Below are positions 62,159 to 62,956 of a DNA stretch of 64,000 nucleotides, piece by piece (positions within the stretch are counted from its first letter, which is position 1; each line of letters begins with the position of its first letter). The notes beneath the pieces are model-generated. The model did no database searches and was not told where the DNA came from. It saw only the letters and a program-made list of their open reading frames with translations. A program made the translations under genes and the position numbers. The DNA comes from Escherichia coli (GTDB lineage Bacteria > Pseudomonadota > Gammaproteobacteria > Enterobacterales > Enterobacteriaceae): the NCBI RefSeq assembly GCF_003334785.1, contig NZ_QOWV01000009.1; one strand, given 5' to 3'.

Positions 62159-62188
62159 AACGCCCGATAATATTCTTATTGGGCGTTT
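62159..62188. terminator. Hairpin between convergent ddlA and yaiZ (possible bidirectional terminator)
   Basis: AACGCCCGATAA-TATTC-TTATTGGGCGTT followed by TTCAGTTTC; overlaps the yaiZ stop codon. Confidence 0.5.
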
Positions 62189-62388
62189 TCAGTTTCTTCA
62201 TCGCGACGACGAATAATCAACCCCGCCAGCCAGAAACTAATCACCCACGTCACCAGACCGACGGCATAGGTCTGCCAACCTTTTGCTTCAAATCCCAGTA
62301 ACCCCACCACGCCATTAAGAATGAATATAAGGCCAATGGCGAACGCATAGTAGTGCCAGTCACGGCGGATTTTTACAGGCAGATTCAT
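62176..62388 (-). CDS. yaiZ: YaiZ small membrane protein of unknown function (70 aa)
   Basis: ORF track 62176..62520; start placed at internal ATG giving MNLPVKIRRDWHYYAFAIGLIFILNGVVGLLGFEAKGWQTYAVGLVTWVISFWLAGLIIRRRDEETENAQ (two predicted TM helices). Confidence 0.8.
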   Translation of the reverse strand: MNLPVKIRRDWHYYAFAIGLIFILNGVVGLLGFEAKGWQTYAVGLVTWVISFWLAGLIIRRRDEETENAQ

Positions 62389-62647
62389 GGCAGCTCCGTT
62401 AACGAAAAACAACATCCTTGCATATTCTGCAACAACCGTCTGTGGTGTAGACAACATTTTCGTAATTGTTAATAAATTTAACTTAAGGTTGCCATTTTGT
62501 GACTCACAACGAAGATTCACGCTTCGGGAATATTCCCAACATCAATTTACCATGATTCTGATATTGACAATCTAAATGACCTGTCAGACTTGCCATAAGC
62601 CGCTGGTATCACACCAGAAGAGAAGCAGATGACTTCCGGAGGTTTTT

Positions 62648-62956
62648 ATGGCTGATTTCACCCTGTCAAAATCGCTGTTTAGCGGAAAATATCGCAATGC
62701 CTCTTCAACGCCTGGCAACATTGCCTATGCGTTGTTTGTGCTGTTTTGCTTTTGGGCTGGGGCGCAATTGCTGAACCTGTTAGTGCATGCGCCCGGCGTC
62801 TATGAGCGTTTAATGCAGGTCCAGGAAACAGGTCGCCCACGGGTGGAAATTGGTTTAGGTGTCGGCACCATTTTCGGGCTGATCCCGTTTTTAGTAGGCT
62901 GCCTCATTTTTGCAGTGGTGGCGCTATGGCTGCACTGGCGACATCGCCGCCAGTAA
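62648..62956 (+). CDS. yaiY: YaiY inner-membrane protein of unknown function (102 aa)
   Basis: ORF track 102 aa [50 protein letters not shown]...; two hydrophobic helices. Confidence 0.85.

Follow-up and report, generated by a model that had tools for sequence, protein, structure and literature searches.

yaiZ and yaiY of Escherichia coli: two unrelated membrane protein genes held side by side by synteny, with yaiY a likely target of RcsB

Introduction

Between ddlA and yaiW of E. coli, two short genes, yaiZ and yaiY, are transcribed in opposite directions from a common spacer, and each encodes a small membrane protein. This layout raises the question of whether the two proteins act as a functional pair or are neighbours by inheritance. 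An earlier note on this DNA had presented them as a divergent pair of small membrane proteins of unknown function, and had cautioned that the sequence itself gives no sign of a functional link. Earlier publications already cover the two genes, their protein families, the topology of YaiZ and the Rcs dependence of yaiY. Two modest additions are made here. The "pair" is inherited synteny with a nested distribution, in which yaiZ occurs solely where yaiY does, rather than a co-regulated unit, and yaiY is preceded by a predicted promoter with RcsB-type elements in fixed register across about 90 Enterobacteriaceae species. The reading preferred here, to which a probability of about 0.6 is given, is that yaiZ and yaiY are two unrelated Enterobacteriaceae-specific genes, neighbours by conserved synteny and served by separate promoters, with yaiY likely to be a direct target of RcsB.

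Gene structure of the locus

The window, that is, the whole stretch of 64,000 nt that was analysed, is from E. coli K-12; its segment 61900-63300 (1401 bp) matches E. coli K-12 MG1655, and several other E. coli genomes as well, at 100% identity. The coordinates, protein lengths and divergent order given in the earlier note were exact to the base, and its flanking genes agree with the RefSeq annotation (ddlA, yaiZ, yaiY, yaiW). Across the block, ddlA points forward, yaiZ reverse, yaiY forward, and yaiW and sbmA reverse, with the following features around the two genes.

62159-62187, forward strand: intrinsic-terminator hairpin of ddlA
62176-62388, reverse strand: yaiZ coding sequence, 70 aa plus stop; inner-membrane helical hairpin, DUF2754
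62389-62647, no strand: spacer between yaiZ and yaiY, exactly 259 bp, 40% GC; two separate, back-to-back predicted promoter regions
62638-62642, forward strand: Shine-Dalgarno sequence GGAGG of yaiY
62648-62956, forward strand: yaiY coding sequence, 102 aa plus stop; inner-membrane hairpin, DUF2755
62967-63002, no strand: REP element between the stop codons of yaiY and yaiW

The Shine-Dalgarno sequence of yaiZ is GGAG (62397-62394), with the start codon 5 nt downstream, and that of yaiY lies 5 nt before the ATG, its bases G259-G263 being invariant or nearly so in the alignment. A GTG-started ORF of 114 aa in the mechanical ORF list (62176-62520) was rejected as a longer form of yaiZ, because the Pfam model spans residues 1-70 only and the upstream indels between genera are non-triplet. 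The 3′ ends of ddlA and yaiZ are convergent, and the ddlA terminator overlaps the final four codons of yaiZ. The REP element corresponds to a sub-threshold Rfam naRNA4 match, and the REP core motif was found three times in the window against an expectation of 0. Remnants of MFS or Extensin-like genes, searched for in the iraP-ddlA spacer of E. coli, were not detectable.

Two unrelated small membrane proteins

YaiZ matches Pfam PF10953 (DUF2754) with an E value of 6.6e-49 (residues 1-70 on model positions 1-70 of 70), and YaiY matches PF10954 (DUF2755) with an E value of 3.2e-49 (residues 1-101 on model positions 1-100 of 100). YaiZ and YaiY are themselves the proteins on which these families are built, so that nothing differs between protein and family, and the families carry no function. 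As neither protein has an NCBIfam HMM match at E ≤ 0.01, the RefSeq names "YaiY family protein" and "DUF2754 domain-containing protein" must stem from another naming rule. Weak Pfam matches to UbiA, DUF1761, DUF2062, LapA and PspB were read as noise of transmembrane composition. Comparison with nine other genera gave dN/dS values of 0.03-0.09 for yaiZ and 0.05-0.12 for yaiY, which indicates that both genes are real and are selected as proteins. Both families are narrow, with 224 and 251 clusters in a set of 5.8 billion proteins.

The prediction of two membrane helices per protein was confirmed by a topology check, in which Kyte-Doolittle analysis gave two hydrophobic segments each, at about 13-33 and 40-60 in YaiZ and about 25-47 and 68-97 in YaiY, and the AlphaFold helices were concordant. 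YaiZ is an N-in/C-in hairpin with a tiny periplasmic turn (EAKGWQ), a conserved cytoplasmic RRDWHYY motif and an IIRRR stretch ahead of an acidic tail. Its inner-membrane location and C-in topology have been shown experimentally, a YaiZ-GFP fusion was made in cells with normal localisation, and YaiZ served as a model of a YidC-independent membrane protein (PMC3225971). YaiY starts with a basic disordered tail followed by TM1 (22-47); its periplasmic loop carries the conserved HAPGVYE(H/R)LMQ motif with a short helix (51-60) inside, and a glycine-rich TM2 (68-101) leads to a basic C-terminus.

The AlphaFold model of YaiY is of low confidence (pLDDT 65) and a Foldseek search of it against the PDB gave no match below E = 4.7; no fold inference was therefore drawn. 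Searches by sequence for relatives of YaiZ or YaiY with solved structures gave none. A paralogous origin of the two proteins was rejected (BLASTP E = 12; hhalign probability 1.1%), and no natural YaiZ-YaiY fusion was present in the 86 matches to a fused query among 1.84 billion representatives. An AlphaFold2 model of fused YaiZ-YaiY built on a species-paired alignment reached pLDDT 62 and pTM 0.32 and had no confident interface, which is a weak negative in view of the shallow alignment of 43 sequences. The caution that the sequence holds no functional link was well placed.

Nested distribution in a syntenic block

All named sources of both families are Enterobacteriaceae, the genes invariably sit at this locus, and the divergent pair is found in the same block at 78 of 80 species loci. 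The co-conservation check suggested by the earlier note revealed a distribution that is independent in one direction only. At least five lineages, namely Intestinirhabdus, Apirhabdus, Entomohabitans and two further ones, carry yaiY without yaiZ, and the YaiZ HMM has no match in them even at E ≤ 10. These lineages are scattered on the DdlA tree, which implies that yaiZ was lost independently at least twice. The reverse state, yaiZ without yaiY, was not met in about 95 loci, including six of six contig look-ups anchored on yaiZ. Wherever yaiZ is present in these loci, its adjacency and divergent orientation to yaiY are kept. The pair persists despite altered flanks, as in Mangrovibacter and in locus L092, where yaiW is lost, and in Cedecea and Buttiauxella, where sbmA is replaced. 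The spacer measures 241-268 bp in most genera, within a full range of 166-355 bp. As the block from ddlA to sbmA is syntenic throughout, the adjacency of yaiZ and yaiY is by itself little informative.

The nested pattern could mean that yaiZ depends on yaiY. A highly constrained, constitutive YaiZ combined with an Rcs-induced YaiY would then give the ddlA/ampH/sbmA envelope locus a membrane module that stress can switch, and such a dependence would explain why yaiZ has so far been met solely together with yaiY while yaiY may stand alone. This functional dependence is regarded as quite improbable.

Conserved elements in the spacer

A generic sigma-70 scan of the region found no promoter, and the promoter elements described below were derived by phylogenetic footprinting, with 91 unique upstream sequences from about 90 Enterobacteriaceae species. 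By this comparison, almost all of the conserved spacer sequence is assigned to the predicted yaiY promoter. The elements are listed below.

62414-62442, reverse strand: putative yaiZ promoter, with a -35-like CAGACG (62442-62437) and an extended -10 TGcAAGGAT (62422-62414)
62498-62502, forward strand: nearly invariant TGTGA in mid-spacer; CRP-like half-site with a poor second half
62525-62538, forward strand: RcsB-box-like palindrome CGGGAATATTCCCA, core GGAATATTCC at 62527-62536, centred about -65.5 from the predicted yaiY start
62544-62569, forward strand: most conserved spacer block AATTTACCATGATTCTGATATTGACA, with TTACCA (62547-62552), TCTGA (62557-62561) and TTGACA (62564-62569)
62582-62590, forward strand: predicted extended -10 of yaiY, TGTCAGACT (TGn plus CAGACT), 15 bp from TTGACA

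The start of yaiY transcription is predicted near 62597. In its extended -10 element, T82, G83, A86, A88 and T90 are invariant across 25 genera, and fixed-register counts upstream of it are 80/91 for TTGACA, 89/91 for TCYGA and 78/91 for TTAYCA. The palindrome CGGGAATATTCCCA is an inexact match to the RcsB consensus TN(G/A)GAN4TC(T/C)NA (PMC7913699), agreeing at 7 of 8 specified positions. Its core form, RGA-N4-TCY, for which chance would give about 0.3 matches per 300 nt, precedes the TG of the extended -10 by exactly 55 nt in 74 of the 91 sequences, including all five lineages that lack yaiZ. It is absent at that register in the remaining 17, which include Salmonella arizonae/diarizonae, Kosakonia and Lelliottia. 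With one mismatch allowed at most, the strict consensus is present in a minority of genera only, and the fixed-register core is the more informative measure. The TCTGA motif is a candidate RcsB half-site at about -40 to -36, abutting the perfect -35 hexamer TTGACA, and TTACCA, to its left, contains the most invariant bases and misfits the RcsB consensus.

The closest likeness is to rprA, which, like osmB and bdm, is activated directly by RcsB and shares with yaiY a very high Rcs-dependent induction and an upstream pseudo-palindromic (G/A)GA-N4-TC(C/T). The RcsB box of rprA spans -53 to -33 (PMC7913699), and its promoter-proximal half-box, TCTGAT, has the same sequence and position (about -40 to -36) as the candidate half-site of yaiY. 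Unlike rprA, yaiY has two putative elements, a full palindrome near -65 and a mere half-site near -42, set 23 bp apart and combined with a perfect TTGACA and a 15-bp spacer, and the left half at -42 (TACCA) breaks the consensus. Direct control of yaiY by RcsB appears most likely.

On the yaiZ side, a conserved CCACAGAC ... TGnGAGGAT pattern is found upstream of the gene in most genera, read in the sense of yaiZ, and a 5′ UTR of about 20 nt is predicted. The two predicted promoters lie about 190 bp apart. No Rfam non-coding RNA family scored above threshold in 61900-63200, and the REP-related sub-threshold match lies outside the spacer. The 5′ UTR of yaiY showed no conserved structure, with no pairs predicted by RNAalifold and a z-score of 0.53 for the single sequence.

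Rcs-dependent expression of yaiY

Membership of yaiY in the Rcs envelope-stress regulon, where it ranks at the top, is well documented (PMC5105897, PMC5343319, PMC3599342, PMC2731931). By qRT-PCR it rose about 18-fold on rcsB overexpression and 16.3-fold on rpoE overexpression, in a study whose microarray data for yaiY disagree with its qRT-PCR values (PMC2731931). In published transcriptomes, yaiY was raised by log2 3.9-5.2 after colicin M and 37-50-fold by a LolCDE inhibitor, and was lowered 33-fold in an rcsB-disrupted strain. In the Rcs-1 iModulon it carries the highest gene weight. The neighbouring yaiW rises with it, 3.2-4.0-fold with the LolCDE inhibitor and by log2 1.26 with colicin M. 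None of the examined Rcs-response lists in which yaiY ranks near the top includes yaiZ, these lists being tables of significant genes. A yaiY knockout had a reduced ampicillin MIC in one preprint that used Keio strains (10.1101/2025.09.17.676618). The label "unknown function" therefore still holds biochemically for both proteins, but it passes over the documented Rcs membership of yaiY, the ampicillin phenotype reported for its knockout and the use of YaiZ as a model of YidC independence. The word "pair", if taken to mean a functional unit, finds no support, given that yaiY occurs without yaiZ in several lineages and that co-regulation does not appear in the Rcs lists.

Proposed explanation and alternatives

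Envelope damage, such as peptidoglycan injury or lipoprotein mislocalisation, would switch on the Rcs phosphorelay, and phospho-RcsB would then bind the palindromic box near -65 and the rprA-like half-site near -40 of yaiY. There it may activate a handicapped sigma-70 promoter, with a perfect -35, a weak extended -10 and a 15-bp spacer, raising yaiY mRNA by perhaps 15-50-fold. YaiY would be inserted N-in/C-in with its conserved loop of 20 residues facing the periplasm, and is most likely envelope-protective through binding and modulation of a larger membrane protein, in the manner of other small membrane proteins that stress induces. yaiZ would have its own transcription outside the Rcs response. 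Its product is more sequence-constrained than YaiY, with almost no periplasmic exposure, and is probably a constitutive accessory or structural subunit inside the membrane.

Several observations could be read differently, with YaiZ and YaiY as a two-protein inner-membrane module, either a heteromer or antagonists, kept together by the divergent layout. Adjacency and orientation hold even where the flanks have changed, yaiZ is never met alone, the spacer length is constrained, and two N-in/C-in hairpins are topologically compatible. The module is nevertheless unlikely. yaiY is retained and under selection in at least five lineages without yaiZ, the loss having occurred at least twice, no Rcs data set shows co-regulation, and the conserved spacer sequence corresponds to separate predicted promoters. 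The poor scores of the fused model, shallow as its alignment is, and the synteny of the whole block also count against it.

Two further alternatives concern transcription. One is that yaiZ and yaiY act mainly at the RNA level, as convergent transcripts that run into ddlA and yaiW and interfere with the neighbour, a so-called excludon. In 50% or more of the E. coli RNA-seq samples, ExcludonFinder reported the convergent yaiW-yaiY and yaiZ-ddlA overlaps (PMC12288877). At their 3′ ends the genes adjoin or overlap, with the ddlA terminator inside yaiZ and a 4-bp overlap of yaiY and yaiW in Raoultella, Cronobacter and Apirhabdus, and no own-strand terminator-like site was found after yaiZ or yaiY. 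Strong purifying selection at the protein level, with motifs conserved throughout both proteins, makes such a role very doubtful, as does the joint rise of yaiW and yaiY, which contradicts mutual exclusion; moreover, the REP insertion between yaiY and yaiW in E. coli leaves both genes intact. The other is that yaiY belongs directly to the sigma-E regulon, as its neighbours sbmA-yaiW do. The response to rpoE overexpression and the accepted status of the adjoining sbmA-yaiW operon as a sigma-E target (PMC2731931) speak for this. However, a search of the spacer for GGAACTT-N15-17-TCAAA reached at best 8/12 on either strand, no better than the mean best score of 8.25 in 300 shuffles, and the conserved elements are of sigma-70 type (TTGACA, TGn -10) together with RcsB-type motifs. 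With the 33-fold fall on loss of rcsB alone and the discordant values of the rpoE study added, direct sigma-E control becomes highly improbable. The reading of two unrelated neighbours with separate promoters, yaiY being the likely RcsB target, is thus preferred.

Relation to known systems

Small inner-membrane proteins induced by stress can modulate larger partners, as in MgrB-PhoQ, AcrZ-AcrB, MgtS-MgtA and Blr-divisome. YaiY has in common with this class its small size, membrane location, induction within a stress regulon, lack of an enzymatic domain and narrow taxonomic range, and the drug-susceptibility phenotype reported for the yaiY deletion also fits. Unlike members of the class, YaiY and YaiZ have two helices instead of one and are longer (70-102 aa), and no sequence or fold similarity to MgrB, AcrZ, MgtS or Blr was found for either. 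YaiY is a sensible candidate effector for Rcs protection against beta-lactams, and its predicted promoter offers a concrete, testable architecture for a highly responsive Rcs promoter and a potential reporter.

Short membrane proteins, an intergenic-looking stretch and a divergent or convergent layout are also shared with type I toxin-antitoxin and other small hydrophobic-peptide loci. This class was rejected because no RNA family exceeded the threshold in the region and both ORFs are conserved proteins. In contrast to type I loci, both partners are conserved proteins, an sRNA family in antisense or divergent position is lacking, each gene is non-mobile and present once, and YaiZ-GFP is made in cells and localises normally (PMC3225971). 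An origin in anti-phage defence or from phage was likewise rejected, the yaiZ and yaiY products having no match to PADLOC or PHROGs models and the genes not lying on mobile elements. Both genes are chromosomal, single-copy and not mobile; the 9 of 72,556 plasmid records that carry them are all non-mobilizable and mostly chromosome-sized.

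Gene layout and the predicted yaiY promoter

The stretch 61900-63300 (1401 bp) shares 100% identity with E. coli K-12 MG1655 and occurs in 5,420 of 5,426 complete E. coli genomes. In the window, which runs in reverse of the standard K-12 gene order, RefSeq gives phoA, iraP, a 67-aa hypothetical ORF, ddlA (+), yaiZ (-), yaiY (+), yaiW (-), sbmA (-) and ampH, and the earlier note had described yaiZ and yaiY correctly in every detail (sizes, divergence, 259-bp spacer, ddlA and yaiW flanks, and two transmembrane helices each). A Shine-Dalgarno sequence lies 5 nt before both start codons.

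Features of the locus
60777-60980, minus strand: 67-aa hypothetical ORF (RefSeq) inside the iraP-ddlA spacer
62159-62187: ddlA intrinsic-terminator hairpin, overlapping the last four yaiZ codons
62176-62388, minus strand: yaiZ coding sequence, 70 codons and stop (RefSeq)
62389-62647: yaiZ-yaiY spacer, exactly 259 bp, 40% GC versus 49-54% in the flanking genes
62422-62414 (extended -10) and 62442-62437 (-35-like CAGACG), minus strand: putative yaiZ promoter, from a conserved pattern
62648-62956, plus strand: yaiY coding sequence, 102 codons and stop (RefSeq)
62967-63002: REP element (GTCAGATGCGGCCTGAAACGCCTTATCTGGCCTGAC), filling the interval from the yaiY stop codon to the stop codon of convergent yaiW

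When the spacers of 25 genera were aligned, one segment nearer to yaiY, 62542-62592, stood out as strongly conserved. Spacing inside this segment is fixed, which allowed gap-free stacking of 91 unique sequences from upstream of yaiY, anchored on the motif TGnnAnAnT (E. coli TGTCAGACT, 62582-62590), and the promoter motifs and their fixed register are directly visible in the stack.

Motifs upstream of the TG in the 91-sequence stack
62527-62536: RcsB-box core RGA-N4-TCY (GGAATATTCC), 55 nt upstream, 74/91 species
62547-62552: TTAYCA (TTACCA), 35 nt upstream, 78/91 species
62557-62561: TCYGA (TCTGA), 25 nt upstream, 89/91 species
62564-62569: perfect TTGACA, 18 nt upstream, 80/91 species

The RGA-N4-TCY core, for which the chance expectation is about 0.3 anywhere per 300 nt, is present at 55 nt in all five lineages that lack yaiZ. 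The published RcsB box, TN(G/A)GAN4TC(T/C)NA (PMC7913699), specifies 8 positions, and the E. coli sequence CGGGAATATTCCCA (14 nt) agrees with it at 7 of them. With the yaiY start predicted near 62597, the palindrome would be centred at about -65.5 and a TCTGAT half-site would lie at -40 to -36, coinciding in position and sequence with the promoter-proximal half of the rprA box (-53 to -33, TTGAGACGAATCTGATC; PMC7913699). Only 15 bp separate the -35 from the best -10 candidate, so the promoter should be weak without an activator, and no sigma-E-type promoter beyond chance was found in the spacer. In our reading, yaiY would be transcribed from a sigma-70 promoter that RcsB activates directly through two elements spaced by 23 bp, with both binding and start site predicted from sequence. 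TTACCA (62547-62552) is among the most invariant spacer elements and fits neither the RcsB half-site consensus nor another recognised motif. The predicted 5' UTR of yaiY contains a small stem-loop, CTGG-N7-CCAG (62603-62617), which is seen again in many genera along with a few compensatory changes (CAGG/CCTG, GCGG/CCGC); RNAalifold gave no consensus structure for this UTR, and its fold energy is unremarkable (z = 0.53).

Conservation on the yaiZ side is weaker, and a pattern CCACAGAC ... TGnGAGGAT, ahead of a T-run and the Shine-Dalgarno sequence, recurs upstream of yaiZ in most genera, compatible with a weak promoter of the extended -10 type. The two promoter regions would stand back to back about 190 bp apart without overlap, separated by an AT-rich stretch. 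In mid-spacer, TGTGA (62498-62502) is nearly invariant across the 25 genera and resembles a CRP-type half-site (TGTGA-N6-nCAnA), centred at about -92 from the predicted yaiY start and about -98 from the predicted yaiZ start.

Expression of yaiY and yaiZ

Few known genes respond to Rcs as strongly as yaiY. Its expression rose 16-18-fold by qRT-PCR on overexpression of rpoE or rcsB, with discordant microarray values that the authors deemed an artefact (PMC2731931), rose by log2 3.9 and 5.2 under colicin M (PMC3599342), increased 37- and 50-fold with a LolCDE inhibitor (FPKM 17 to 618 and 839; PMC5105897), and fell 33-fold in an rcsB-disrupted O157:H7 isolate (PMC5343319). yaiY also carries the highest weight in the 'Rcs-1' iModulon, and the Keio strain deleted for it had a lower ampicillin MIC (bioRxiv 10.1101/2025.09.17.676618). 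yaiZ is absent from the Rcs-response lists that report yaiY, in main text and supplements (PMC2731931, PMC3599342, PMC5105897, PMC5343319); the record for yaiZ is scant, with a listing as an OxyS target (PMC3318445) and a transposon hit from a type-1-fimbriae screen (PMC6727828). As far as these data go, yaiY and yaiZ are not co-regulated.

Distribution and loss of yaiZ

The two families are very small, with 224 and 251 clusters at 90% identity among 5.8 billion proteins, and all named sources are Enterobacteriaceae, reaching as far as Mangrovibacter, Cedecea, Buttiauxella, Apirhabdus and Entomohabitans. A search with YaiZ and YaiY fused gave only 86 matches in 1.84 billion representatives; many are fragments, and no match spans both halves. 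Only 9 of 72,556 plasmid records carry yaiZ/yaiY, all non-mobilizable and mostly chromosome-sized. A scan with the YaiY alignment, one genome per species, found relatives in 142 species, of which the best 80 were kept as loci, and in 78 of these 80 a divergent yaiZ adjoins yaiY within a fixed block, ddlA> <yaiZ yaiY> <yaiW <sbmA; the other two are a contig end and Intestinirhabdus alba. yaiY without yaiZ also occurs in Apirhabdus apintestini, Entomohabitans teleogrylli and two further lineages (contigs of the most divergent YaiY proteins), where an HMM search of six-frame translations detected no YaiZ remnant even at E <= 10. On a rough DdlA tree the yaiZ-less lineages are scattered, with Intestinirhabdus inside the Escherichia/Citrobacter/Salmonella group and one of the two further lineages sister to a yaiZ-bearing one, which implies at least two independent losses. 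As yaiY adjoins yaiZ in all six YaiZ-anchored contigs (Raoultella, Cronobacter, Cedecea, Buttiauxella and two more), the distribution is nested, with yaiZ only where yaiY occurs. Since synteny extends over the entire block, adjacency alone tells little about function.

In L064 (Citrobacter koseri NCTC10786, 3500-6700), yaiZ, yaiY (69 aa), yaiW and sbmA all seem truncated or interrupted, reflecting either a degraded locus or assembly indel errors. L088 (E. teleogrylli, 5564-6139) lacks yaiZ and has an Ail/Lom-family outer-membrane protein gene in place of yaiW downstream of yaiY, and L083 lacks ddlA, yaiZ and sbmA while retaining yaiY-yaiW beside ampH.

The two proteins and their possible roles

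Pfam places YaiZ in DUF2754 over its full length (E 6.6e-49) and YaiY in DUF2755 (E 3.2e-49); by sequence, the two families are mutually unrelated (BLASTP E = 12; hhalign probability 1.1%), and neither has relatives in PDB (by sequence), NCBIfam, PADLOC or PHROGs. Hydropathy indicates two membrane-spanning segments in each, and AlphaFold places helices at 5-30 and 38-67 in YaiZ and at 22-47, 51-60 (a short loop helix) and 71-101 in YaiY. Experimentally, YaiZ is a C-in inner-membrane protein inserted independently of YidC, becoming YidC-dependent once its cytoplasmic KIRR/RRR charges are neutralised (PMC3225971). In comparisons with nine other genera, yaiZ has a dN/dS of 0.03-0.09 and yaiY one of 0.05-0.12, in the same range as ddlA and sbmA, and the long-range dN of YaiZ (0.045-0.087) is below that of the DdlA enzyme (0.11-0.16). 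Conserved motifs are spread throughout both proteins (YaiZ, RRDWHYYAxAxGLIFIxNG ... GW ... TW..FW.AG.IIRR; YaiY, a 16-letter stretch ... HAPGVxExLMQ ... RP ... FG).

That YaiZ and YaiY work together as a functional pair is improbable. yaiZ is never seen without yaiY, the divergent layout outlasts changes in the flanks, and the topologies are compatible; however, yaiY has survived repeated loss of yaiZ, the genes are regulated differently from separate promoters, and the proteins share no homology. AlphaFold2 modelling of YaiZ-(GS)5-YaiY gave no confident interface (pLDDT 62, pTM 0.32), a weak negative from a shallow species-paired alignment (43 sequences). An excludon, in which the convergent transcripts yaiZ-ddlA and yaiY-yaiW would interfere at the RNA level, is consistent with the abutting or overlapping 3' ends, and ExcludonFinder lists both combinations (PMC12288877), but selection on yaiZ and yaiY is strong at the protein level and yaiW rises 3-4-fold alongside yaiY rather than falling, leaving such a role as at most a side effect.

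In the most likely scheme, envelope damage would activate RcsB, which would switch on yaiY from an otherwise nearly silent promoter, and YaiY would be inserted as an N-in/C-in hairpin with its conserved loop (HAPGVYExLMQ..RP) on the periplasmic side. The second helix of YaiY is glycine-rich (GLGVGTIFG), as is typical of helix-helix packing, and YaiY, by analogy with other small membrane proteins induced by stress, would most likely bind and tune a larger envelope protein, thereby adding to tolerance of cell-wall damage; this role as a modulator is tentative (probability about 0.3). In YaiZ the exposed loop is nearly absent, the charges next to the membrane are conserved and the sequence is under extreme constraint; the protein resembles a constitutive accessory subunit within the membrane. 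Both genes had been described before, as had their families, the topology and the dependence on Rcs. The comparative points added here, namely the nesting of yaiZ within the distribution of yaiY, its independent losses and an RcsB-type promoter architecture at fixed register, seem not to be set out in the literature examined and are incremental.

Flanking sequences

The iraP-ddlA spacer (60596-61057) is 462 bp long with 34% GC. An MFS transporter gene occupies this site in many other Enterobacteriaceae, often accompanied by an Extensin-like_C gene, and tblastn detected no remnant of either in the E. coli spacer. In other genera, either 3 bp separate the stop codons of ddlA and yaiZ, or the two ORFs share as many as 15 bp. 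Downstream of yaiY, the REP element 62967-63002 gives a sub-threshold Rfam naRNA4 match; in Raoultella, Cronobacter and Apirhabdus no such insert is present, and the yaiY and yaiW ORFs have 4 bp in common. The REP core motif CGCCTTATCCGGCCT has 3 matches in the window versus 0 expected. The two further copies, 50699-50713 and 50803-50817, are spaced by about 100 bp and may form a REP pair or BIME.
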